Of a stretch of DNA of 12,893 nucleotides, positions 1-10,948 are shown in pieces. Source of the stretch: a virus (taxonomy: Duplodnaviria; Heunggongvirae; Uroviricota; Caudoviricetes); IMG/VR virus record IMGVR_UViG_2617270988_000017; one strand, written 5' to 3'. How positions within the stretch are numbered: position 1 is the first letter of the stretch; each line of letters opens with the position of its first letter. A program made the translations under genes and the position numbers. The notes under the pieces were generated by a model that saw nothing but the letters and a program-made list of their open reading frames with translations, had not been told where the DNA came from and searched no databases.

Positions 1-1461
1 ATGAAAAAATTACTGCATCTTTTTTTCCCGCTCTCGCTGCGGGTACGTTTTCTGTTAGCAACGGCAGCAGTAGTATTGGTGCTTTCGCTTGCCTACGGAA
101 TGGTTGCGCTGATCGGTTATAGCGTCAGTTTCGATAAAACCACGTTTCGGCTGTTACGTGGCGAGAGCAATCTGTTCTATACCCTTGCGAAGTGGGAAAA
201 CAATAAGTTGCATGTCGAGTTACCCGAAAATATCGACAAGCAAAGCCCCACCATGACGCTAATTTATGATGAGAACGGGCAGCTTTTATGGGCGCAACGT
301 GACGTGCCCTGGCTGATGAAGATGATCCAGCCTGACTGGCTGAAATCGAATGGTTTTCATGAAATTGAAGCGGATGTTAACGATACCAGCCTCTTGCTGA
401 GTGGAGATCATTCTATACAGCAACAGTTGCAGGAAGTGCGGGAAGATGATGACGACGCGGAGATGACCCACTCGGTGGCGGTAAACGTCTACCCGGCAAC
501 ATCGCGGATGCCAAAGTTAACCATTGTGGTGGTGGATACCATTCCGGTGGAGCTAAAAAGTTCCTATATGGTCTGGAGCTGGTTTATCTATGTGCTCTCA
601 GCCAATCTGCTGTTAGTGATCCCGCTGCTGTGGGTCGCCGCCTGGTGGAGTTTACGCCCCATCGAAGCCCTGGCAAAAGAAGTCCGCGAACTGGAAGAAC
701 ATAACCGCGAATTGCTCAATCCAGCCACAACGCGAGAACTGACCAGTCTGGTACGAAACCTGAACCGACTGTTAAAAAGTGAACGCGAACGTTACGACAA
801 ATATCGTACGACGCTCACCGACCTGACCCATAGTCTGAAAACGCCACTGGCGGTGCTGCAAAGTACGCTGCGTTCTCTGCGTAGTGAGAAGATGAGCGTC
901 AGTGATGCTGAGCCGGTAATGCTGGAGCAAATCAGCCGCATTTCACAGCAAATTGGCTACTACCTGCATCGTGCCAGTATGCGCGGCGGGACATTGCTTA
1001 GCCGCGAGCTGCATCCGGTCGCCCCACTGCTGGACAATCTCACCTCGGCGCTGAACAAAGTGTATCAACGCAAAGGGGTCAATATCTCTCTCGATATTTC
1101 GCCAGAGATCAGCTTTGTCGGTGAGCAGAACGATTTTGTCGAGGTGATGGGCAACGTGCTGGATAATGCCTGTAAATATTGCCTCGAGTTTGTCGAAATA
1201 TCTGCAAGGCAAACAGACGAGCATCTCTATATTGTGGTCGAGGATGATGGCCCCGGTATTCCCTTAAGCAAGCGAGAGGTCATTTTCGACCGTGGTCAAC
1301 GGGTTGATACTTTACGCCCTGGGCAAGGTGTAGGGCTGGCGGTAGCCCGCGAAATCACCGAGCAGTATGAGGGTAAAATCGTCGCCGGAGAGAGCATGCT
1401 GGGCGGTGCGCGGATGGAGGTGATTTTTGGTCGCCAGCATTCTGCGCCGAAAGATGAATAA
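1..1461 (+). CDS. phoQ: Sensor histidine kinase PhoQ of the PhoPQ two-component system, complete
   Basis: The 486-aa translation reads as E. coli PhoQ essentially end to end from memory (MKKLL...[15 protein letters not shown]; periplasmic acidic patch EDDDDAEM; H-box [12 protein letters not shown]; C-terminal [12 protein letters not shown]). ATG at 1, TAA at 1459-1461. Confidence 0.97.
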
Positions 1462-1971
1462 ATATGTCCTTTTATCACCACAGCAAGGCAACCAATTGAT
1501 TTAATTAAACAACTCACACTGCAAAAAGTGCTAAAAACAGCAAATTGACTACACCATTAACTACACCGTTCGGTGCACTGTATGAAACAACGTTGAACAA
1601 ATAGACACAAGAAATATACAGGCGGGTAATCTTTCCAGGGGGAAGCGCACCAATTCATGAGGGGCGTTAATGTCGATATGGGGATCCCCATAACGGGGCT
1701 ACCAGATTTTTTTTCCGGTTAACTGTTAATCAGGCTGGTGGGCTTTACCTGTTCGGTAGGTGTTATGATTATCGTAATACCTTTCCCCCAATGGGGTAAA
1801 AGCTCCAACCGTAACGATGTTCGTTATGGTTGCCTTGATGGTCTGAGTGGTCATTTTGACCATTCAGCCAATGACCTTAATCAGAATTTTTCGCTAAAAA
1901 ATGACGTTGGCCACGTCATCCGGAAAGCACAAAATCACGTCGATTTTTAATGAACGGTTAAACCGTCTTTT

Positions 1972-2008
1972 TGTCACGGTGTGTCACTGGTTGTCACTCT
2001 CCGTCACG
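1972..2008. repeat. Four GTCAC pentamers in perfect 10-bp phasing (putative protein-binding array)
   Basis: GTCAC occurs at 1973-1977, 1983-1987, 1993-1997 and 2003-2007, so all copies sit on one helical face. A palindrome ACGGTT-A-AACCGT lies just upstream at 1953-1965. Function is inferred. Confidence 0.4.
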
Positions 2009-2096
2009 ATTGAGGTGGTGGACATTCTGCCCGACCGCGCATTTTTGCGCTATCGGGAATATCAAACAGTTACCGCGCCGACTTCCTCAAATTGAG

Positions 2097-2237
2097 GTTT
2101 CCGAAAATATCAGCGGGTTAGCGATTAAGCTGACGAGTAATTAAACTGCGAAAATTTCGTAGTTTGTGACTATCTGAAAGATAGTCGGTTGTTCCGGCCT
2201 CAGCCGTTGGCTGTTTCCGAAAATATCAGTAGGTTAG
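2097..2237. repeat. Pair of about 25-bp direct repeats (GTTTCCGAAAATATCAG + GGTTAG) 116 bp apart, flanking an 8-bp-stem palindrome
   Basis: Copy 1 is at 2097-2121 and copy 2 at 2213-2237, with a 17-bp identical core. Between them, 2168-2186 is GACTATCT-gaa-AGATAGTC. Possible arm or recombination-accessory sites near the element's left end; function not established. Confidence 0.4.
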
Positions 2238-2238
2238 G

Positions 2239-2262
2239 CCAAAGCTCAAAAATGAGCTTTGG
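2239..2262 (-). terminator. Hairpin 16 nt downstream of the 93-aa ORF, possible terminator or RNA-stabilising stem
   Basis: Perfect 10-bp stem CCAAAGCTCA / TGAGCTTTGG with a 4-nt loop. There is no clean U-tract after the stem on the minus strand, so it is a weak terminator call. Confidence 0.35.
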
Positions 2263-2277
2263 AACAATATCAACAAG

Positions 2278-2559
2278 TTACCGCCGTAACCGCTCCGGCT
2301 TCTTCCAGTGGTACGTAATTTTCTCCGTTTCCCGATACAGTGCCACGCGGCGATTGTAGGCCAGCATTTCAAGAACGCGGATCCGTATGTTGCGCATATC
2401 CACATCATTAAGCTGGATACCATCACGGCGCATCACCTCAGCAACAACACGCGCATAATTTTCGGCTGTCACGCTGTCCGGCTGCGTGGCCTGTTCGTCA
2501 GTCTGCTGGCTGATTCCACCAGCACGGCGGATTAATCCCAGTATTTCGGCTTCTGTCAT
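2278..2559 (-). CDS. Hypothetical protein, 93 aa
   Basis: ORF with ATG at 2559-2557 and TAA at 2280-2278. It lies just outside cos-L and reads away from it. No family recognised by eye. Confidence 0.55.
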   Translation of the reverse strand: MTEAEILGLIRRAGGISQQTDEQATQPDSVTAENYARVVAEVMRRDGIQLNDVDMRNIRIRVLEMLAYNRRVALYRETEKITYHWKKPERLRR

Positions 2560-2592
2560 TGTGCACCCATCGTTCTGATTGTCTGGTGTCGT

Positions 2593-2705
2593 CGGGTCCT
2601 TCCTGGAATTATGGACCCGTTACGGGGCGGCGACCTCGCGGTTTTTATCTGTTTATGAAAATTTTCCGGCAAAAGTCAGATCCGTTCTTCTTCTCTGTAA
2701 CAGAC
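2593..2705 (+). other. Lambda-type cos site, left copy (cos-L): cosQ-like, cosN, lambda-like cosB
   Basis: 2593-2636 reads CGGGTCCTTCCTGGAATTATGGACCCGTTACG followed by GGGCGGCGACCT, then CGCGGTTTTTATCTGTTTATGAAAATTTTCCGG...CCGTTCTTCTTC. This closely matches the lambda right-end/left-end junction as I remember it (...CGGGTCCTTTCCGGTGATCCGACAGGTTACG | GGGCGGCGACCTCGCGGGTTTTCGCTATTTATGAAAATTTTCCGG...CCGTTCTTCTTCG). The cosN 12-mer is at 2625-2636. Its packaging direction points into the 3' end of terS. Confidence 0.75.
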
Positions 2706-2723
2706 TGTTTAACAATGAAAATA

Positions 2724-2797
2724 TTAAAAAAAGAAAGGATCTGACACGAGGCATTTTAGCCAGAAAATGCCATTATCAGATCCTTTCTCATTTTTGT
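2724..2797. terminator. Bidirectional Rho-independent terminator downstream of terS
   Basis: Compound hairpin with outer stem AAAGGATCTGA (2734-2744) / TCAGATCCTTT (2776-2786) and inner stem GGCATTTT (2750-2757) / AAAATGCC (2764-2771). An A7 run at 2726-2732 gives a U-tract on the minus strand, and TTTTT at 2791-2795 gives one on the plus strand. Confidence 0.7.
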
Positions 2798-2815
2798 TCA
2801 ATAATTGCGCGTCTG

Positions 2816-3358
2816 TTACTCGCCTTTCTTCTGTAGCAACTTTTCCGGTACGTTTCCGGTTGTTTCTTTCAAGTAATCAGTCAGTATCTGTGGGAGGTTG
2901 TCGGCAACTCTGGCACTGGCATTACAGGCTTTAACCACTTCCCTTTTAAGCCTATCCAGCATGGCGGGGGTAATCTGTGGGAAGCTCCTTTGCATAGTAA
3001 GCGGGAGGCTGTCCATGATTGATGAAATCTGACTCGCCAGCTTTGAAAGCGCGTACAGGCAAAACTCAGTATCAATCACGTCACCGCGATCGCGCTCGTT
3101 TTTAAGTTCCTGCGCCTCCGCCTGTGCTGTCAGTAATCTGATCCTGACTCGTAAGAGTTCATCATCATCAATATCGCCTTTGTCGTTTGTAAGCTGGCTA
3201 ATTGCATTGTTAACCCTATTGTCTATCACGCTGGCAACATCATAAAACGCCTCACGGCCTTTACGTTCAACGGGAGTCACTCCCCACTTGTCGAACGCTG
3301 TCGCACTTACACGGCAGCTTTTCGCCATGTTTTTTTTGTTCATCAGGTGCGATTTCAT
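2816..3358 (-). CDS. Terminase small subunit, lambda Nu1 family
   Basis: The 180-aa product aligns along its length with lambda Nu1 recalled from memory: N-terminal winged-HTH region (NKKNMAKSCRVSATAFDKW vs NKKQLADIFGASIRTIQNW) and C-terminal region (LTAQAEAQELKNERDRGDVIDTEFCLYALSKLASQISSIMDSLPLTMQRSFP vs LTRAQADAQELKNARDSAEVVETAFCTFVLSRIAGEIASILDGLPLSVQRRFP). ATG at 3358-3356. Confidence 0.9.
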   Translation of the reverse strand: MKSHLMNKKNMAKSCRVSATAFDKWGVTPVERKGREAFYDVASVIDNRVNNAISQLTNDKGDIDDDELLRVRIRLLTAQAEAQELKNERDRGDVIDTEFCLYALSKLASQISSIMDSLPLTMQRSFPQITPAMLDRLKREVVKACNASARVADNLPQILTDYLKETTGNVPEKLLQKKGE

Positions 3359-3360
3359 TA

Positions 3361-3534
3361 ATACACCAACTTAATTACTGCTTCAGGTTGGTGTATTGTT
3401 TGCATCTTTCCCTTTTTATTCATAAAGATAGATCAAACAACGAAACCACCACCACCCCCCTGAAAAGGCTCATAAATAGCGAAAAACCGCTAGGTCGCCG
3501 CCCCGTAACGGGCCATAATTCCAGGAAGGACCCG
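3361..3534 (-). other. Lambda-type cos site, right copy (cos-R): cosQ-like, cosN, divergent cosB, directly upstream of terS
   Basis: 3493-3534 is the near-perfect reverse complement of 2593-2635 (42 of 43 positions, one 1-nt indel), with the cosN 12-mer AGGTCGCCGCCC at 3492-3503. On the minus strand it continues CGGTTTTTCGCTATTTATGA (lambda-like), then diverges (CAGGGGGGTGGTGGTGG) and ends in the 10-bp inverted repeat ATACACCAAC (3361-3370) / GTTGGTGTAT (3387-3396) beside the terS ATG. The cosN-cosB-terS order and orientation match lambda. Confidence 0.75.
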
Positions 3535-3535
3535 T

Positions 3536-3558
3536 AAAAAAGCCGGATTTCTCCGGCC
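3536..3558 (-). terminator. Rho-independent terminator ending the capsid operon
   Basis: Minus-strand stem GCCGGA-gaaa-TCCGGC followed by T6 (plus-strand A-run 3536-3540), 6 nt after the stop of the 137-aa ORF. Confidence 0.75.
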
Positions 3559-3563
3559 TTGTC

Positions 3564-3977
3564 TCAGATGGTTTTCAGTATGCGATCGATGTCGCCGTCA
3601 TCGCCCTGGTTTCTGCCATCGTATGCCATGCCAGCTGATACGGCTTGCGGGCTGTGCATGTCCATAAAGTTTTCAAAGGCTGCGGTAAGTTCCGGCGCAA
3701 CCTTCGGACGTTCCTGCTCTATGGTCATGCTAAGGATGCTTTTAGCCGTACCAACATCGATACAAGGCACGTTTGCCATTGCACGCAACAGCGGCTGATA
3801 GTCTTTATGCTCATGAAGCGCCATAATCGCATCAGCGCGCGGCTTGTCCTGCTCTTCCAGTTTGTTTAGTTGATATACGGCCTCATAGGTTGATAAACCT
3901 CTGTCAGCCATTGCCCGCGCTTCGACTTTAAATTTACTCGCCAGCGGTAGCGTCATGATGCTTTCATTCGTTGCCAT
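3564..3977 (-). CDS. Hypothetical protein, 137 aa, last gene of capsid operon
   Basis: ATG at 3977-3975 is preceded by a strong SD (AGGGGGAA) and follows the decoration-gene stop with a short gap. No family recognised. Inferred to be capsid-associated from context only. Confidence 0.65.
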   Translation of the reverse strand: MATNESIMTLPLASKFKVEARAMADRGLSTYEAVYQLNKLEEQDKPRADAIMALHEHKDYQPLLRAMANVPCIDVGTAKSILSMTIEQERPKVAPELTAAFENFMDMHSPQAVSAGMAYDGRNQGDDGDIDRILKTI

Positions 3978-3989
3978 CGTTCCCCCTGC

Positions 3990-4325
3990 TTATCGGGCCA
4001 GCGGCTGAACGGATACGCCGGAACCCGCAAAGGCGGCGCATTTTTTCGCATCGGTGTCGACGCTCTCAGGCCAGTTAACGGCGGCAATATTGAATATCCC
4101 CGTCTTGTAACACTGTGCTGATTTCTGCTTTGACGTGCCCACAGGGTACGAGGTCAGATAAACAGCCTTGCCAGATTCCTGACCATCCCACGGCTTAAAC
4201 TCGCCATTGTCTGCCAGCATCAGCGGGGTAAATTCCTGAATAACGCCAGCATCAGCGGCAAAATGTACCAACGTCGTGGATACCTGCTGACTGCCTGCAA
4301 ATAACTCAATGTATGGAGTGTCCAT
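3990..4325 (-). CDS. Head decoration protein, lambda gpD family
   Basis: The 111-aa product matches lambda gpD from memory ([23 protein letters not shown] vs [59 protein letters not shown] vs [36 protein letters not shown]). SD GGGGGGA upstream of the ATG at 4325. Confidence 0.85.
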   Translation of the reverse strand: [111 protein letters not shown]

Positions 4326-4337
4326 AGAATCCCCCCG

Positions 4338-5393
4338 TTAACCAATTTTGACGGTAACAAATTTGCGAATATCTGCCGGTACCGGCTGCGGTGCACTGTG
4401 TGTCTGCACGTACTCAATCGCCGGATCGCCGTCCTCAATCCAGTTTTTCGGGTAAAACATGTTTTGTGTTGCGCCCGTTCTTACCGCTTCCTGATCCATT
4501 ATCGCACCATAGGCCACCAGCCCTTTATTGTTGGTGTTACCCAGGACCAGCAAATCAGGCTCAAGGAAATATTTTTCGGTACCATCGCTGTCAGTGTATT
4601 TGCCGGAATAGACGATAAGGGCCAGATCACCAAGATAGCCTTTAAAGCTCACCACTTCGCCCAGGTTTTTACAGGCCAGTTCGGCGGCGGATTCTGAACC
4701 ACGGGAAAGATCGTACAGCTCACGGAATTTTTTAAAGCTGCCTAATGTGCGCCATACCTCAGCGCCCATAATCATGACGTTTGCGGGGCAACCAGCCTGA
4801 TCAGCATAAAGCTCGATGTCATAGATTGGGTCGTGCATGTCTTTATCCTGCTCGGACCATTTTTTACCCTTGGCCTGCTCTATGATGCAGTTTTCCGGTA
4901 TTTTCCAGTCGATTTCATAGCGTTCTATGCCTTCGCCCTCAATGATGTTTTTTCCGGTCGTTACCGCATTCACCGCCAGCCATTCCACGCGTGCCTTAAT
5001 GGCGTTTATCTGGCGGCGCATGTTGCCAGTAATCAGGCGCATACGGCGATAGGTAGGGTCGTTAAGCTGTGCCGGATCTTCTCCAGCCATGCGCATGATG
5101 GTTTTCGTTGGATCGATTTCGTGCTTTGGCTTCATGTAGCCAGGTTTGATTGTGCTGGTTTCGTACCCTTTATCGCGCTGAACCTGGCTACCCACCATAG
5201 GCGAACAAAACGCCGACATGGTGACTTCTTCAATGTCCAGGGTATCCAGCATGATGTTTTGCGTGCTGAATGTCGCCACGTTCGGGAAAAACAGCGTGGT
5301 AAACAGAGGGCTGAATTTAAAATCCGCAATATCCCCGCGATTCAGGTACATGAAAAGCTGGTTAGTGTTAAGTGCCGTTGCTTTGCCTGCCAT
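4338..5393 (-). CDS. Major capsid protein, lambda gpE family (HK97 fold)
   Basis: The 351-aa product aligns with lambda gpE over its full length by eye, at moderate identity (for example KPGYMKPKHEIDP vs TPGYVKPKHEVNP; DPTYRRMRLITGNMR vs DPAYRRRRIIMQNMR; LVLGNTNNKGLVAYGAI vs MVLGNTQARGLRTYGCI; YPKNWIEDGDPA vs YPKNWVTTGDPA). SD GGGGGTGA. The E-then-D gene order is the reverse of lambda. Confidence 0.92.
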   Translation of the reverse strand: MAGKATALNTNQLFMYLNRGDIADFKFSPLFTTLFFPNVATFSTQNIMLDTLDIEEVTMSAFCSPMVGSQVQRDKGYETSTIKPGYMKPKHEIDPTKTIMRMAGEDPAQLNDPTYRRMRLITGNMRRQINAIKARVEWLAVNAVTTGKNIIEGEGIERYEIDWKIPENCIIEQAKGKKWSEQDKDMHDPIYDIELYADQAGCPANVMIMGAEVWRTLGSFKKFRELYDLSRGSESAAELACKNLGEVVSFKGYLGDLALIVYSGKYTDSDGTEKYFLEPDLLVLGNTNNKGLVAYGAIMDQEAVRTGATQNMFYPKNWIEDGDPAIEYVQTHSAPQPVPADIRKFVTVKIG

Positions 5394-5599
5394 TATTCAC
5401 CCCCATAATTTTTATGCATCCCAAGCGCCGCAAGTAAATAAGAGCGTACAAGTGAACCTATCGACGGCTCCGGCGTCATCAGCGGATCCAGTCCAGCCGC
5501 AACGCCAGCTTCATAGTTTTTTTTGTGGCGCTGCTTGAGCACCTCCACGATTTCGGGGCTTATGTACACCGAAACACCGCCTTTTTTCTCTTCAGCCAT
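5393..5599 (-). CDS. Hypothetical protein, 68 aa, first gene of capsid operon
   Basis: In-frame ATG at 5599 (MAEEKKGG...) preceded by GAGG. Its stop overlaps the capsid-gene start (TAATG), implying translational coupling. The track's longer start at 5632 has no SD. Confidence 0.5.
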   Translation of the reverse strand: MAEEKKGGVSVYISPEIVEVLKQRHKKNYEAGVAAGLDPLMTPEPSIGSLVRSYLLAALGMHKNYGGE

Positions 5600-5649
5600 A
5601 GTAAGAAATTCCTCTTCGACTAAAAAAATCATAACTGGATGTTTATCCA

Positions 5650-5684
5650 GTCCTGATTATAATCAGAATTGCATTTTATGCAAT
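5650..5684 (-). promoter_or_regulatory. Candidate sigma70 promoter for the capsid operon, embedded in two palindromes
   Basis: Minus strand reads TTGCAT (5683-5678), a 16-nt spacer, then TATAAT (5661-5656). The -10 lies inside the perfect 14-bp palindrome CTGATTATAATCAG (5653-5666) and the -35 inside TTGCAT-ttt-ATGCAA (5669-5683). The first ORF starts about 55 nt downstream. Confidence 0.5.
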
Positions 5685-5764
5685 GATATTGAGTTATGTT
5701 GCAAATTATGAAATGATTATCCCGATCACGAACGCCAGTGCATCCAAAAACCTCATATGCAAAA

Positions 5765-5802
5765 GCCCGATAAGAACCCTCTGACCTTATCGGGCTTTTT
5801 TT
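5765..5802 (+). terminator. Rho-independent terminator, plus-strand orientation, probably bidirectional
   Basis: Stem GCCCGATAAG (5765-5774) / CTTATCGGGC (5786-5795) with a 11-nt loop, followed by T7 (5796-5802). There are four U on the minus-strand side. Confidence 0.6.
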
Positions 5803-5808
5803 GGGCGC

Positions 5809-5830
5809 AAAAAAGCCGGATTGCTCCGGC
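5809..5830 (-). terminator. Rho-independent terminator downstream of the 74-aa cassette ORF
   Basis: Minus-strand GCCGGA-gcaa-TCCGGC followed by T6. Same stem sequence as the terminators at 3536-3558 and 6172-6194. Confidence 0.7.
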
Positions 5831-5850
5831 TATGTGTGCTGTGTGCTGGC

Positions 5851-6075
5851 TCAGTCTCTGATCTCTTTCAGAAATTCTATCAATGCATCTATCTGTTCAG
5901 GATTTACCGCCAGCATTTCACCGGATAGAGCACATCTCACAAAACCATGCTGATCCTTTTCAATCAGTGCGCCCGTCTCCAGGAATGCGCGGTAATCATT
6001 GATGCTCATCGTCTCCATGTTGTCAGCATGGTATTTATCACGCTGTTTTAATATCTCATCAAATTTCATCGGCAT
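5851..6075 (-). CDS. Hypothetical protein, 74 aa, terminator-insulated single-gene cassette (moron-like)
   Basis: ATG at 6075 with SD AGAGGAA about 10 nt upstream. Intrinsic terminators lie both upstream (6172-6194) and downstream (5809-5830, 5765-5802). No family recognised. Confidence 0.6.
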   Translation of the reverse strand: MPMKFDEILKQRDKYHADNMETMSINDYRAFLETGALIEKDQHGFVRCALSGEMLAVNPEQIDALIEFLKEIRD

Positions 6076-6171
6076 TGTTTTTTTCCTCTGTTGTGTCTGT
6101 TTGTTTCAGATAGTAACTATGCCTGACCGTGACGAAAACCCGGTAATGCGCCATACCGTTTCAACTGGTGC

Positions 6172-6194
6172 AAAAAAAGCCGGATTTCTCCGGC
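6172..6194 (-). terminator. Rho-independent terminator ending the replication/regulatory operon
   Basis: Minus-strand GCCGGA-gaaa-TCCGGC followed by T7 (plus-strand A-run 6172-6178), 8 nt after the perC-like stop. Confidence 0.75.
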
Positions 6195-6201
6195 TGTTTG
6201 A

Positions 6202-6474
6202 TTAGCTGTCCTGGTAATTGCGCCATATTTCATCACCAGCACCATCTATACCCATTTCGGCATAAGTGCGATCGACTGCCTTTTTCAGGTCTCCGAAATT
6301 ATCCGGCGGCTCCGGTGCCCTCTGTGCCTTCCTTGAACATTCCAGCCGTCGCATCGTGATGTGATGCCGTTCCTTGTCTGTCTCCACCAGCTGCATGACT
6401 TCACCCCATCGCGCCGCCGCCCTCCGGTAAAAGCCTTTCGCCTCCAGTTCCTCCGCTATGCGGTCATGTACCAT
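6202..6474 (-). CDS. PerC-family transcriptional activator-like protein, 90 aa
   Basis: Start MVHDRIAEELEAKGFYRRAAARWGEVM carries the PerC/Pch-type N-terminal motif as I recall it. ATG at 6474 has a strong SD (GAGGGGGTGA). The track's longer version overlaps ssb and is rejected. Confidence 0.65.
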   Translation of the reverse strand: MVHDRIAEELEAKGFYRRAAARWGEVMQLVETDKERHHITMRRLECSRKAQRAPEPPDNFGDLKKAVDRTYAEMGIDGAGDEIWRNYQDS

Positions 6475-6484
6475 CGTCACCCCC

Positions 6485-6895
6485 TCAGAACGAAATATCA
6501 TCACCGTAAGAGTCATCGCCTCCCGCTGGTGGCTGATTACCCTGTGTGCCTGTGGTTTTGCGTCTGTTCCCGCCTGGACGTGCCGCGCGGGCACTGATTA
6601 CGCTGTCTGCGATAACCTGCCAGCCCTGCCGCGTTTCTCCGTTCTGTCCGGTCCACTGGCTTACCTGCATCGTGCCGGATACGCTGGCAACATCGCCTTT
6701 TTGATGTTTAGCCAGGAAGTCGGCCTGTTTGCCAAATGCGATGACCGATAACCATAACGTCGCCTGTCCGTCCTGTGCCTGGCTGCATGGCAAAGATACC
6801 GCCATACGCGCCAGCGTCATCGGTGTGCCCTTGCTGGTCTGTTTTACCTGCGGGTCGTCCACCAGCCGCCCGTAAGCGGCTATCTGTGCCGTCAT
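6485..6895 (-). CDS. ssb: Single-stranded DNA-binding protein
   Basis: 136 aa with an OB-fold-like N-terminal region, a Gly/Pro/Gln-rich linker (GTQGNQPPAGGDDSYG) and an acidic C-terminal tip DDISF resembling the SSB DDDIPF tail. The start overlaps the upstream stop (ATGA). Confidence 0.85.
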   Translation of the reverse strand: MTAQIAAYGRLVDDPQVKQTSKGTPMTLARMAVSLPCSQAQDGQATLWLSVIAFGKQADFLAKHQKGDVASVSGTMQVSQWTGQNGETRQGWQVIADSVISARAARPGGNRRKTTGTQGNQPPAGGDDSYGDDISF

Positions 6896-7143
6896 AATTC
6901 CACCTCTCCGGTTTTAACGTTGATGGTTGTTACCTGTTCCGCTTCGGCAATCTCCCGTTCTGTCAGCGTGGCAAAGTTTGCCGCCGCCGTGGTCATGAAT
7001 GCGCTTATCAGGTCGGGATGTTCCTTCGCGTATCCTTCCCGCGTGTGGCGGTCTATCGTTCTGATTGCCACCTTTAAGGTGTGCTCAGTCATGTCTAACG
7101 CTTTATATTTTGGCTCTGTTCTGTCTCTGCGTTTTTGGGTCAT
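6892..7143 (-). CDS. Hypothetical protein, 83 aa, translationally coupled to ssb
   Basis: In-frame ATG at 7143 (MTQKRRDR...) with SD GAGAGG. The track start at 7173 is GTG and sits in the iteron array. The stop overlaps the ssb start. Confidence 0.5.
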   Translation of the reverse strand: MTQKRRDRTEPKYKALDMTEHTLKVAIRTIDRHTREGYAKEHPDLISAFMTTAAANFATLTEREIAEAEQVTTINVKTGEVEL

Positions 7144-7152
7144 TTCTCGCAA

Positions 7153-7348
7153 CCTCTCACTTTTTCGCCTCACTTTTTCAAGCGTCTCACTTCGTCGCAG
7201 TTGGGATTTTCGGTTTTTCTATGTGTGTGTTTCATAAGTATTTTTTTACCCCTCACTTTTGAGGATGTATACAGGTCGAAAAGTGAGGGAGAGCGGGCTA
7301 ATTTTGGCCCTCTTTCTATCCCCCTCGCTTTTGCTCCTCACTTTTATA
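7153..7348. repeat. Iteron array, putative origin of replication of the element
   Basis: CTCACTTTT-type repeats at 7156-7165, 7169-7178, 7186-7192, 7252-7260, 7278-7289 (inverted), 7323-7333 (variant CTCGCTTTT) and 7336-7347, plus an AT-rich stretch at 7230-7248. It lies immediately 3' of the rep gene, as is typical of satellite and plasmid origins. Confidence 0.55.
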
Positions 7349-8743
7349 GCGGCGCTACATCATCCCCATCGATACGAATAACCCCATCTTTTTCCAGCTT
7401 GTACAGCCAGCGCCGGAAGTTTTTCATTTCATACCCCAGCTTTTTCATGTCATCACGTAACAGCGGGATCGTGCACTTGTCGCCGTTCTGTGTGCGTGAA
7501 CGGATGCACCCCCATAGCGCGGTATGGTTTTCCGTCTTGTTCCCTGCCTCCTCGATGCGCTCCAGTTCAACAGGAGGGCGCGGATCATCCACCACCACCA
7601 GCGACGTGATTAATTCACCGTCAGCGTCGGTAAAAAGCTCCACCACGCGTAAGTCATATGCGGCTTCTTTGAGTTCCTCCGCGTCCTTCATTTTGGTGCA
7701 TGAGATAACCAGCGCTTCGCTTCCTGCGTCCTCCCTGCGTATCCGGTATTCAGCATCCAGCGAAGCACGAAATGCACTGGAACCGCGCGCGCCTTTCGTC
7801 TCATCCTTGCCGGAATGGTGAACCACCAGCACCGTGGCCCCTGTGCGTCGTTTCAGTTCGTCACAACCACGGATAAACGCCCCATATCACGGGAATCATT
7901 TTCATCATTCCCACCAAAGCAACGCGCCAGCGTATCCAGAATAATCATGCGTACAGGTTTACCCGTTTCCCGCTCCACCTGACGGGCAGCGATAACCATT
8001 TCATCAACATCAAGCGGGGCAGCCGGAAAGATGGGGCGGTTTACCAGATACAGATTTTTCACCTGCTCATCGTGCACAACCTCCCAGGCTTTTACACGAC
8101 GCGGAACACCTATACCGCCTTCACCAACCACATAGAGAACCGCACCATGTGCAACCCTGCGGCCTCCCCACTGGCGACCAGTGGCAACATGGCACGCCCA
8201 CGATCCGGCAAGGAATGATTTATAGGACCCGCTAGCCCCGTATATGCTGCATAGCGATACCGCCGGAATAATCCCCTTAACCACGTAATCCAGTTGCGTG
8301 TCGTATCCGGTAGATCCAACGCTCATCGGTAGCGTGGTTTTTCGCTGGTGGTTTTTTTCTTCCGCCGGCTCTTTCCCGCGCACCCGTTCCAGGTATTCGC
8401 GCCAGTTCTCCCGCATATGGCTGTGCATCCCTTCGGGGTAATAATTCGCATCAGTTACACCCGCCGCCGCCAGCTTGTGCGCAATGGCATTAATATTTGA
8501 TGGCCTGATGTGGCCTGCCTTGTACAGCCGGACACAATAGCGCCCCTCGTCGATGATTCTCAGGTCTGCCAGTTCATCCAGTTGATCATCAGCCAGCACA
8601 ACGGGAGGCACATTATCGCCAGCCAGTCGCCCGTCCTGTTCCTGCCACTGTTTCGCATGTGCCCAGGCATCACTACCCGCAAAAATAATGACTTCGGTCA
8701 TCTTGTCGTAAGGCTGTTTTTTTAAGTTCGGTGCGCTTTTCAT
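7344..8743 (-). pseudogene. Replication protein (primase/helicase-like, RepA-type P-loop ATPase with C-terminal winged-helix-like tail); reading frame interrupted near 7880
   Basis: The N-terminal ORF (8743..7853) has a Walker-A-like GASGSYKS and ILDTLARCFGG. The C-terminal ORF (7832..7344) continues in another frame with VVHHSGKDETKGARGSSAFRASLD, typical of RepA/AAA_25-like ATPases. The total span is 1400 nt, not a multiple of 3. The frames join if the G4 run (plus-strand CCCC 7880-7883) is G5, giving ...DSRDMGAFIRGCDELKRRTGATVLVVHH... Confidence 0.7.
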
Positions 8744-9039
8744 TTCTTGCCCCTGAATCCGTTAACCATGGTTTTCAGCTTCTGGATGTTTGCCCGTGCC
8801 CTGGCGTTGCTGGTGGGCACGTTATGCGGCGCGGTCTGTACCAGAGAAAAATCACGCCGGAACTGATAAACAGGCATCACGCAATCATATTCGTAACCTT
8901 CACGGCGGTAAGTTACGCACCGTCCCGCCACGCCCTTAATCATTACCGTGCCGCCGTACTGGTCGCGGTAAATATCACCGCGCGTAAATTTAGGGTGAGT
9001 GTTGCCACTGGCAGTTAAGCCAGAATATTTAAGTTTCAT
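8740..9039 (-). CDS. Hypothetical basic protein, 99 aa
   Basis: ATG at 9039 with GGAG upstream. The stop overlaps the rep start (ATGA). No family recognised. Confidence 0.55.
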   Translation of the reverse strand: MKLKYSGLTASGNTHPKFTRGDIYRDQYGGTVMIKGVAGRCVTYRREGYEYDCVMPVYQFRRDFSLVQTAPHNVPTSNARARANIQKLKTMVNGFRGKK

Positions 9040-9044
9040 TATTT

Positions 9045-9278
9045 TTATTCTCCGGTGTGCTGTTCGTTATATCTGTCGTGCAATGTCTCTATTTCCTGCA
9101 ACTCATTTATTACAGGCTCAAGAAGCGTTATTAATGCCGTGACAATTCTTGATTTTTGTTTGTCGCGTTCATTGTCGCCAAGTGTTTCAAGCCATATGCG
9201 CAATATTTCGTACATACCTTCAGCGTAAGCAAGGGCACTAAATGCGCGGTCTATTGTTTCGTGGTAAATATCACGCAT
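9045..9278 (-). CDS. Hypothetical small acidic protein, 77 aa
   Basis: ATG at 9278 with SD GGGGA. Net acidic and helical-looking. Tightly packed with neighbours (1-5 nt gaps). Confidence 0.55.
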   Translation of the reverse strand: MRDIYHETIDRAFSALAYAEGMYEILRIWLETLGDNERDKQKSRIVTALITLLEPVINELQEIETLHDRYNEQHTGE

Positions 9279-9279
9279 A

Positions 9280-9501
9280 TTAATCCCCGTCCGTTGTTTT
9301 TCTTAAAACAGCTTCTGTCACGAAATCAGCATAGTTAGCGGCAATATCAAGAATATTTAGCCCTGTATCTCTGTGCTCATCAGTGCAAAGAAAGAAAAAA
9401 GCCACCCGCATAATTTCAGATATTGACGAAAGCGCATCAGCCGCATCATCAGGAACGCCGGAAAATTCTTGTTTCAGGGAATTAAAACGATCATCACGCA
9501 T
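9280..9501 (-). CDS. Hypothetical small acidic protein, 73 aa
   Basis: ATG at 9501-9499 (MRDDRFNSLKQEFSGVPDDAADAL...). The track's longer N-terminus is rejected. It shares a PD-AADAL motif with the upstream 73-aa ORF. Confidence 0.55.
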   Translation of the reverse strand: MRDDRFNSLKQEFSGVPDDAADALSSISEIMRVAFFFLCTDEHRDTGLNILDIAANYADFVTEAVLRKTTDGD

Positions 9502-9715
9502 AACCCCCCCCATTTTCACAATCAGCAACAAGAATATTTTTAGCGTCATTCAGCGACCGCGTTGCGATGTATCGGATACATTCCAGGGCGAACTGTGTCC
9601 GGTCTTTCTGTTCTTCTCCCTGCGCAAGCTCTGCAGTGCATTCAATATCGATAAGCGCGTGCATCAGCGTAGTGAGCGCGTCGGCTGCTGCGTCCGGTGT
9701 GGTTTTATTGCACAT
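9494..9715 (-). CDS. Hypothetical small acidic protein, 73 aa
   Basis: ATG at 9715-9713 (MCNKTTPDAAADAL...) preceded by a strong SD (AGGAGGTG). It ends in NGGGYA encoded by a G8 run and overlaps the next start. Confidence 0.6.
   Translation of the reverse strand: MCNKTTPDAAADALTTLMHALIDIECTAELAQGEEQKDRTQFALECIRYIATRSLNDAKNILVADCENGGGYA
9504..9511. repeat. C8/G8 homopolymer at a gene junction
   Basis: Eight consecutive C on the plus strand (G on the coding strand). It encodes the GGG tail of the upstream ORF and lies 2 nt before the ATG of the downstream ORF. Confidence 0.9.
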
Positions 9716-9896
9716 GGCACACCTCCTGACGAATACGGGCGGCGAATACAGCAACACAACCGGACGGGCAACGGCTACGCGCTTCGCGTTCCGTCCAGGC
9801 GGTTACGTGGATGATTTGATGTTCTGACGCGCCAAAGATGATAAAGCGCCAGAGAAAGGCGGTTTGAGAATGTACAAGGGTAGGGATAGTAGCCAT
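9705..9896 (-). CDS. Small protein, 63 aa; possibly Icd-like (host cell division inhibitor family), tentative
   Basis: ATG at 9896 with SD GAGGAGG 8 nt upstream, TAA at 9707-9705. The WRF and FAARIRQ motifs resemble what I recall of Icd-like small proteins from P4-like islands, but this is unverified. A diverged tandem copy lies 369 bp upstream. Confidence 0.5.
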   Translation of the reverse strand: MATIPTLVHSQTAFLWRFIIFGASEHQIIHVTAWTEREARSRCPSGCVAVFAARIRQEVCHVQ

Positions 9897-10056
9897 GTTG
9901 GCAGCCTCCTCAGTGTGGTTAAGATAACCGCCACCGGAAACGCCAATTTCGCTGGTGGCGGACTGTACAGGGTTGGCGTAACCGGACACTGAAGAAACCG
10001 GCGCGGATTGCTCCGCCCCCGTACAGCCCACCATTGATAAGGTGTGACTATGCGGC

Positions 10057-10082
10057 ACAAAAAAACACGCGGGGCGCGTGTT
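10057..10082 (-). terminator. Strong Rho-independent terminator signature inside the upstream tandem copy
   Basis: Minus strand reads AACACGCG-CCC-CGCGTGTT followed by TTTTTTT (plus-strand A7 at 10059-10065). It is GC-rich with an uninterrupted U-tract. Confidence 0.65.
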
Positions 10083-10265
10083 ATGCGCTTCAGTTTTGCC
10101 CAGGACGCCAATCCCGGCACCCGTTTTATGAGGTGCGCGGGAATCATAGCTATTTTCGACACTGGCGATCAACTGGTTTTTTTCTCCGATATTCAGGGCC
10201 AGAAAACGCCACACAAAGGCCGTTTGTGTGTGTACAAGGTGTGGTATATGATTTACGGCAACCAT
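10083..10265 (-). pseudogene. Degenerate tandem paralogue of the 63-aa ORF (or translated leader); no in-frame stop before the terminator
   Basis: ATG at 10265 with SD AGGAG. The first 30 or so codons are homologous to the downstream ORF (PHLVHTQTAFVWRFLAL vs PTLVHSQTAFLWRFIIF) with synonymous and conservative changes. The frame then runs through the terminator without a stop, and a C-terminal-like motif (RVFLCRI vs AVFAARI) appears only in another frame. Confidence 0.35.
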
Positions 10266-10293
10266 AACGGCTCCTAGTTTACGTTGTTGGTTA

Positions 10294-10328
10294 GACGCCC
10301 CGTATGTGTTCCCAGCACTGCGGGGCGT
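10294..10328. promoter_or_regulatory. 8-bp inverted repeat ACGCCCCG / CGGGGCGT with a 19-bp spacer in the divergent control region
   Basis: Arms at 10294-10301 and 10321-10328, in the 5' leader of the minus-strand small-ORF operon and upstream of the RHH promoter. Confidence 0.4.
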
Positions 10329-10353
10329 TGATTTTTGTGTAATGGCAAGTACA

Positions 10354-10395
10354 ATGGTAATTACCATGTAGGTATAGTAATGAAGGGTAATTACC
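10354..10395. promoter_or_regulatory. Two GGTAATTACC operator-like palindromes at the RHH gene promoter
   Basis: Perfect 14-bp palindrome ATGGTAATTACCAT at 10354-10367 and GGTAATTACC at 10386-10395, centres 30 bp apart. The second abuts the RHH ATG. A TATAGT -10-like hexamer is at 10373-10378. Confidence 0.6.
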
Positions 10396-10569
10396 ATGTC
10401 AACACCATTAGAAAAACGTTCGCCTCCATACCAAATGCGATTACCGGAAGACTTCAGAGCGCAGCTAGAAGAAGCAGCTAAGGCCGATGGCGACACATCT
10501 TTAGCCACTTGGATTAAACGCGTTCTCCGCAAAGAATTACAGCAACGCGGCATAGAACCCAAAGGATAA
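10396..10569 (+). CDS. Ribbon-helix-helix (Arc/CopG-like) DNA-binding protein, 57 aa
   Basis: ATG at 10396, TAA at 10567-10569. The product MSTPLEKRSPPYQMRLPEDFRAQLEEAAKADGDTSLATWIKRVLRKEL has the typical RHH pattern (beta-strand YQMRLP, then two helices). It is absent from the ORF track because it is under 60 aa. Confidence 0.7.
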   Translation: MSTPLEKRSPPYQMRLPEDFRAQLEEAAKADGDTSLATWIKRVLRKELQQRGIEPKG

Positions 10570-10611
10570 AAACTATCAGCGCCGTGGTGTGAGGTATTAC
10601 GGCGCATTGCT

Positions 10612-10800
10612 ATGCAGGACAACACAATGACCGATAAAGAATTGACCAAAACATTATCACCGGCACGGAAAAGACGGCGCAGAAAGATAGAGCATGAATC
10701 AGAAAGATTCGCGCCATGTGCTTTTGCCCTTGAGCAATTCCTTAAAGAGTACAGGGAAAAGCGCTCATTGCAGGTATGGCAACGAACTGAACCAGACTGA
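10612..10800 (+). CDS. Hypothetical small basic protein, 62 aa, downstream of the RHH gene
   Basis: ATG at 10612 (alternative ATG at 10627 with AGGA upstream). It contains an ARKRRRRK basic patch. The coding call is weak. Confidence 0.4.
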   Translation: MQDNTMTDKELTKTLSPARKRRRRKIEHESERFAPCAFALEQFLKEYREKRSLQVWQRTEPD

Positions 10801-10894
10801 TTGCATTGCCCACCAGCCTGATAGCGGCTATCATCCCCGTGCTTATGTTTGGGATCACATACACATAAGGCGCAGCGGGTTAATTGTTCAGAAA

Positions 10895-10922
10895 GGCGGC
10901 TCCATATCGGGGCCGCTTTTTT
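10895..10922 (+). terminator. Rho-independent terminator between convergent alpA and the RHH operon
   Basis: Stem GGCGGCTCC (10895-10903) / GGGGCCGC (10909-10916) followed by T6 (10917-10922). Confidence 0.65.
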
Positions 10923-10948
10923 CGTGTTTGTCATATCTGTGATACCCG

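Follow-up and report, generated by a model that had tools for sequence, protein, structure and literature searches.

The stretch of DNA analysed here (hereafter the window) is 12,893 nucleotides (nt) long, corresponds to IMG/VR record IMGVR_UViG_2617270988_000017, and carries phoQ followed by a satellite island. The replication gene of this island, repA, occupies positions 7344–8743 on the minus strand in the form of two open reading frames (ORFs). These are the halves of one 466 amino acid (aa) "helicase RepA family protein" and are set apart by the loss of a single G at positions 7880–7883. This spontaneous one-base deletion, from G5 to G4, has very probably inactivated the replication initiator-helicase gene of a satellite of the phage-inducible chromosomal island (PICI) type. 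The prototype Gram-negative PICI is EcCICFT073 of E. coli CFT073 (Fillol-Salom et al. 2018, PMC6092414).

The split repA gene

The 5' fragment of the repA pseudogene (ORF-N, positions 7853–8743, minus strand) encodes 296 aa, which represent native residues 1–287 and nine out-of-frame residues. It ends in the out-of-frame sequence RLSVVVTN and a TGA stop codon (7853–7855), and contains an N-terminal Toprim-like domain as well as the Walker A and Walker B motifs. The 3' fragment (ORF-C, positions 7344–7832, minus strand) encodes 162 aa from a GTG codon at 7832, equivalent to native residues 305–466. It contains an HHSGKD motif, the remainder of the RecA-like core and a C-terminal, helix-rich, winged-helix-like domain. 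The GTG codon is 21 nt beyond the stop of ORF-N and has a weak Shine-Dalgarno-like sequence, AGGGG, 5 nt upstream. The frameshift site (7880–7883, minus strand) falls at the codons for Met-Gly-Ala (ATG GGG GCG), where G4 is found versus G5 in intact alleles.

The gene of E. coli O103:H2 12009 (WP_000833618.1, 1401 nt, annotated as "helicase RepA family protein") served as the intact reference. A global alignment with the window at 7344–8743 shows one difference in 1400 nt, the missing G: GATATGGGGGCG in the reference is GATATGGGGCG in the window, i.e., G5 is changed to G4 on the coding strand and C4 is present at 7880–7883 on the plus strand. When one G is put back at this site, the product is RepA of exactly 466 aa, and the proposal of the initial annotation that one inserted G restores a protein of roughly this length is thus exact. 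The same annotation described both halves as well formed and conserved-looking. This also holds, in that each aligns with one and the same protein, found at 58–95% identity in several genera; since both align end to end with it, the ORF pair is not a chance arrangement. ORF-N matches Pfam family AAA_25 with an E value of 5.9e-31, and the match ends at profile position 169 of 195. The mutation appears recent, because there is no further substitution in the 1400 nt relative to the intact allele.

Occurrence of the G4 allele

A megablast search of 5,426 complete E. coli genomes with positions 7344–8743 gave 371 genomes at 99% identity or higher. In the top matches the gene is 1401 nt in the record, compared with 1400 nt in the query, and all are annotated as "helicase RepA family protein". 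An 80-nt query centred on the G run matched 564 complete E. coli genomes, none at 99% or above, and the G4 allele is present in none of the 564. There are 436 genomes in the 95–99% band and, among the matches listed, all have 98.8% identity over an 81-nt span, which equals a one-base gap. As a control, the same kind of query taken from another stretch of the intact gene gave 364 exact matches in complete genomes. A pattern scan of IMG/VR that allowed G4 to G6 found 35 contigs, 34 with G5 and one (L020) with G4; none has G6. The site was not found with G4 to G6 in species-representative genomes, where the representative E. coli presumably does not have the island.

The exact 296-aa truncated product is called on nine contigs, which come from isolate assemblies at NCBI, a metagenome assembly at ENA and read assemblies of Logan. 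One carrier, contig JNRU01000025.1 of E. coli 3-073-06_S1_C1 (GCA_000704845.1), matches the entire window at 100% identity, which makes it the source or a twin. No publication on this strain came up in a literature search. The product is also present in GCA_001283345.2, in ENA metagenome ERZ15610015 (SPAdes NODE_491) and in the Logan assembly of SRR14872201, and further NCBI accessions with the identical truncated product are CTR58759, CTX21984, CTX56586 and KDZ47352. By comparison, an exact match to the intact protein is recorded for at least 1000 contigs. The carriers of G4 differ from the window by 0–2 substitutions across up to 8.7 kb, and this near identity points to one mutational event that was inherited clonally.

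A homopolymer sequencing or assembly error, in a strain that truly has G5 and an intact gene, was one of three explanations offered in the initial annotation. The lesion has the form expected of such an error, in that it is a one-base change in a homopolymer, is the sole difference in 1400 nt and occurs in no complete genome. Against this, the identical truncated protein comes from several projects, and its carriers have a near-identical island and flank, as expected of inheritance. A systematic miscall at the site is contradicted by the more than 1000 contigs of the same kinds of data that show G5, and a random homopolymer miscall does not fit. An error is therefore considered very unlikely. 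The simplest reading of these comparisons is one event in a rare, near-clonal lineage that was met by several independent projects. The deletion is, as judged from the assembled sequences, genuine, rare and lineage-restricted, and E. coli 3-073-06_S1_C1 belongs to the lineage.

Conservation of the gene and of the G run

Homologues at 58–95% identity are single proteins of 465–472 aa and are found in E. coli, Salmonella, E. albertii, E. fergusonii, Shigella and Enterobacter. An alignment of homologues shows strong conservation over the break site (DENDSRDMGAFIxGCDxIKxxTGATVLVVHHSGKDETKGARGSS). The IMG/VR counts that follow are from the best 80 homologous loci, and the run itself was scored in 75 homologues. 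The ORF is uninterrupted in 78 of the 80 loci. G5 is present at the site in 70 of the 75; the other five have synonymous interruptions of the run (GGC GCA or GGA GCG) with Met-Gly-Ala-Phe kept. This argues that the protein is conserved and not the tract. The G5 run is also nothing special in this gene, as there are 11 runs of 5 nt or longer, two of them A7.

The two exceptions among the 80 loci are broken at other sites. Locus L116 (positions 3001–4397) has an independent frameshift, A7 to A6, at nt 386 of the gene, and locus L114 (positions 285–1681) has two one-base insertions near nt 150, including a G4 to G5 change. Either may be real or a sequencing error. The A7 run at nt 386 was considered as a possible frameshift hot spot because of many 327-aa calls that start at Met140. 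This was rejected: 364 complete genomes match the stretch exactly, and A6 is found only in L116. Taken together, the data show what appear to be sporadic, independent frameshifts in a mobile-element gene.

Two further explanations bear on the run and on the two-ORF state. The first is a phase-variable switch, in which slippage of the G run between 4 and 5 would toggle replication of the satellite; a slippage-prone switch was also among the explanations in the initial annotation. The location of the indel in a G run is in its favour, as are the L116 and L114 frameshifts at or beside short runs. However, the tract measures just 4–5 nt, and 10 further runs of 5 nt or more are present in the gene. 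No length polymorphism of the run was found outside the near-clonal lineage among IMG/VR contigs, complete genomes and homologues. A contingency locus is characterized by tract length that varies among close relatives, and the other 34 matching IMG/VR contigs all have G5. With G4 confined to one lineage, no G6 and a run that is broken synonymously in homologues, a switch is extremely improbable. Of the three explanations put forward at first, it is recent inactivation that is borne out, while sequencing error is opposed by the nine contigs and slippage by the lack of polymorphism beyond the lineage.

The second is a functional split, whereby a programmed +1 frameshift, reinitiation, or assembly of the two fragments would yield a working helicase. 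The GTG codon with its upstream AGGGG shortly past the ORF-N stop and the undamaged state of both fragments are compatible with this, but recent mutation explains undamaged fragments equally well. The two-ORF state, which the initial annotation had allowed might be the conserved one, is conserved in no homologue group; with single ORFs in 78 of the 80 loci, neither a two-frame arrangement nor a shift site is conserved as a programmed ribosomal frameshift would require. The cut also interrupts the RecA-fold core, in the interval from Walker B to the next conserved motif. A functional split is judged exceedingly unlikely, and the G5 to G4 deletion as an inactivating event remains the preferred reading.

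Domains of RepA

The intact protein has a single Pfam domain, AAA_25, at residues 148–315 (E value 2.4e-43, profile positions 19–194 of 195). The Walker A motif, GASGSYKS (8216–8239, minus strand; residues 169–176), is invariant in the family. The Walker B strand, MIILD (7934–7948, minus strand; residues 266–270), aligns with MVLD of RSF1010 RepA, and the HHSGK motif (7806–7820, minus strand; native residues 309–313) aligns with HHASK of the same protein. Walker A, Walker B and the downstream His motif are all present and family-invariant, but in the window they are not on one polypeptide, as HHSGK is out of frame with the Walker motifs. The invariant residues R337 and E338 are in the part of the core past the break and are also in the other frame.

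Among solved structures, the RSF1010 RepA hexameric helicase (PDB 1G8Y) is closest in sequence, a weak match with an E value of 0.005. The two proteins align at Walker A, the Walker B strand and the HH(A/S)xK motif, whereas the island RepA has additional Toprim-like N-terminal and winged-helix-like C-terminal domains. An AlphaFold model of the full-length protein is of moderate confidence (pLDDT 65) and displays an N-terminal alpha/beta domain, a RecA-like core and a C-terminal unit. The C-terminal unit is well predicted, with three helices and a hairpin in a winged-helix-like arrangement. Modeling thus suggests that the intact protein has three parts: a Toprim-like N-domain, a RecA-fold ATPase of the RepA/DnaB type (AAA_25), and a C-terminal winged-helix-like domain. 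By its motifs and profile match, the window gene is by descent a member of the RepA/DnaB-like helicase family (superfamily 4, SF4; AAA_25), but in this copy it is a pseudogene.

The N-terminal alpha/beta domain (8369–8743, minus strand; residues 1–125) shares 62% identity with the N-terminal part of Pri-Rep from EcCICFT073. In fold it is nearest to the Toprim domains of DnaG, T7 gp4 and Twinkle, with modest scores, and a Foldseek search with the N-terminal domain alone gave nothing significant. The canonical Toprim Glu is absent; strand 1 (residues 18–22) ends in the invariant F21-A22-G23, with Ala at the Glu position. There is no DxD after strand 3 (residues 70–75), which is followed by the invariant A76-G77. 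No zinc-binding domain was found in Pfam at E values up to 10, and only 16 residues precede strand 1 of the Toprim-like fold. The overall architecture is like that of the T7 gp4 and Twinkle primase-helicase fusions, but the island RepA has no zinc-binding domain, canonical Glu or DxD. In human Twinkle, primase activity is likewise doubtful. Of the label "primase/helicase" given in the initial annotation, the first part has little support; the features of the N-domain make primase activity of RepA doubtful and do not support it. A defensible label is helicase/initiator with a degenerate Toprim-like N-domain.

Putative replication origin

A putative replication origin (positions 7156–7345) starts at the repA stop codon and is directly 3' of the gene. 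It has five exact copies and one variant of CTCACTTTT; four of the exact copies and the variant are direct repeats and one exact copy is inverted. The six copies form two sets around an A+T-rich stretch. In the whole window there are 11 matches to CTCACTTTT compared with 2.8 expected, and no shuffled sequence reached 11. This iteron layout is that described for E. coli PICI origins (PMC6092414), where a replication gene is followed by an iteron origin in two sets around an A+T-rich stretch, and the same succession is found here.

A sibling island at tRNA-Pro in the O26 strain E2865 has a like origin layout (L002, positions 9232–9444), with CCCCACTTTT iterons versus CCTCACTTTT in the window. 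The RepA proteins of the two islands diverge mainly in the C-terminal region. This suggests that initiator and origin specificities are matched in each sibling island, and that the C-terminal domain may read the iterons.

Predicted effect of the deletion

By analogy with the EcCICFT073 replicon, intact RepA would load at the iteron origin immediately 3' of its gene and would drive replication of the island after induction by a helper phage. The G4 deletion is predicted to end translation after residue 287 and the nine foreign residues, such that Walker A and Walker B are on one fragment while the C-terminal domain and what remains of the ATPase core, HHSGK included, are shifted to another frame. 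The helicase should be inactive because the break falls between Walker B and HHSGK. From the requirements of RepA/DnaB-type helicases such as RSF1010 RepA and T7 gp4, a truncation of this type should abolish the coupling of nucleoside triphosphate hydrolysis as well as origin recognition, the latter if the C-terminal domain binds the origin as proposed above. The predicted outcome is an origin that is intact in cis but without its cognate initiator.

The replication module has been analyzed experimentally in EcCICFT073. Helper dependence of its induction, replication and packaging was demonstrated with lambda, phi80 and a resident prophage. Replication was lost in a delta-rep plasmid, and the delta-pri-rep island has transfer lowered from 8e3 to approximately 50 transductants per ml, i.e., about 100-fold lower and not abolished (PMC6092414). 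If the analogy holds, the island in the window would still be inducible and packageable, would replicate poorly and would transfer at a level perhaps two orders of magnitude down. The initial annotation had made the choice among its three explanations decisive for whether the element is autonomous. That is the wrong frame, as such elements are helper-dependent in any case and EcCICFT073 without pri-rep still transfers at the lower level (PMC6092414).

Several points weigh against inactivation with this effect. All evidence for G4 comes from assemblies, and the loss of helicase activity is deduced from the positions of motifs. The 100-fold figure is an analogy, since the EcCICFT073 protein is a D5-type helicase of superfamily 3 (SF3) and shares only the N-terminal 125 aa. 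In addition, the AGGGG before GTG 7832 means that the 3' fragment could be translated, and complementation between fragments is conceivable. A related view is that the G4 allele retains some function: low-level reversion at the G run, or a restart of translation at GTG 7832 with assembly of the two fragments, would give throttled replication and a phage-interfering satellite that rarely amplifies. Separately, the Toprim-like N-domain, which is present on two unrelated helicase classes (SF4 here and SF3 in EcCICFT073), could serve satellite replicons as a novel adaptor without catalytic function. Both ideas are speculative and have very little probability.

The deletion might also have been selected as a form of domestication, where loss of replication is favoured, e.g., by keeping anti-phage interference at a lower cost of induction. 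The allele does persist in isolates and a metagenome from different projects, and, outside repA, the phoQ-side arm is undamaged and does not differ among carriers. On the other hand, the allele is very rare and the same lesion never recurs in parallel. Hitch-hiking or drift is sufficient to explain a rare allele in near-clonal carriers with no parallel recurrence, and selected domestication is very improbable. The inactivating deletion shows the general pattern of frameshift pseudogenes in prophages and islands, which is a single-base indel in a short homopolymer, no further decay, restriction to a lineage and dominance of the intact allele. It is ordinary gene decay of a known kind in a mobile element.

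For annotation, this copy should carry a repA pseudogene, and the frameshift is not to be "corrected" as a sequencing error. The island copy probably replicates poorly and is little suited to transfer. In this satellite family, experimental tests of the replication module cover only the SF3-type variant; the allele adds one documented natural loss-of-function variant and has little significance beyond annotation.

The satellite island

The gene phoQ (1–1461) is at the start of the window. The core of the attachment (att) site, approximately 10 nt (1460–1469), is directly past the phoQ stop and was located by comparison with the empty site in K-12. It is followed by the phoQ-side part of the island (1470–8765, minus strand), which extends from the small terminase through repA. 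The island genes, all on the minus strand, encode an Nu1-like small terminase, a 137-aa protein, a lambda D-like decoration protein and a lambda E-like major capsid protein, and further PerC, a single-stranded DNA-binding protein (SSB), the repA pseudogene, DUF4222, Icd-like and Ash-like proteins, an alpA-type helix-turn-helix (HTH) protein and an integrase. The capsid-type genes (E, D and Nu1 homologues and the 137-aa protein) are at 2816–5393, minus strand. The 137-aa protein weakly resembles (E value 6e-09) the C-terminal end of one PHROG family of head-maturation proteases. Neither the called genes of the island nor the ORFs scanned yielded a large terminase, a portal or a full-length protease. 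The label of capsid-forming PICI (cf-PICI) was rejected on this ground, and the EcCICFT073 type is the better assignment. In EcCICFT073 itself, deletion of the capsid or the decoration gene has no phenotype (PMC6092414).

The island has a specific att site and genes in one direction with int and alpA at one end, as in PICIs; in the canonical copy, L040, int is beside roxA. A caveat is that the integrase end inside the window belongs to a different island. On gene content and order, the island appears to be a PICI-type satellite of the EcCICFT073 type, integrated directly after phoQ. The two occupy one and the same site, between roxA and phoQ, and their genes follow in the same order: int, alpA-type HTH, Icd-like, DUF4222, replication gene, small ORF, SSB, PerC, E-like capsid, D-like decoration and the 137-aa protein. 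In both, an iteron origin also adjoins the 3' side of the replication gene. They differ in the replication protein, which in EcCICFT073 is a 584-aa Pri-Rep with D5_N, DUF5906 and Pox_D5 domains (SF3 type) and here is the 466-aa AAA_25 protein of RepA/DnaB type. In the small terminase slot there is a 180-aa Nu1-like protein here versus a 144-aa protein in CFT073, and the replication gene is frameshifted here.

The integrase-side join

The window is a mosaic. Positions 1–5750 are 95–98% identical to islands of O103 and O26 strains, and positions 5750–8750 are identical to these except for the deletion and a single substitution. From approximately 8500–8766 to the end (12893), the sequence matches the tRNA-Pro/yejM island of O26 strain E2865 exactly, including the 413-aa integrase, and the source contig stops 11 nt short of that tRNA gene. 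The hybrid of a phoQ arm and a tRNA-Pro-type integrase arm is in no complete genome. A simple inversion cannot produce it because the two islands are in direct orientation in E2865.

In the metagenome copy L040, the same G4 arm is joined to the canonical roxA-side arm, and the sequence departs from the window at 8911. Contigs L020 and L039 have a scaffold N at 8766, followed by genes of the e14 prophage (tail fibre assembly, pin and mcrA). Inversion mediated by Pin was considered as an origin of the L020 and L039 arrangement, in which repA is joined to e14 pin and mcrA, and was rejected; the junction is the scaffold N, i.e., a scaffolding join. The use of the roxA-side arm in L040 and the breaks at 8766 in L020 and L039 indicate that the integrase end of the window is probably mis-assembled, and a chimeric assembly through a short exact repeat (8766–8910) probably made the join. 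The frameshift is in the phoQ-linked part and is unaffected by the chimeric join. On the integrase side, a 409-aa ORF (9705–10934, minus strand) joins an Ash-like region to an Icd-like domain at the C-terminus; in E2865, identical DNA carries the annotation of two partial pseudogenes.
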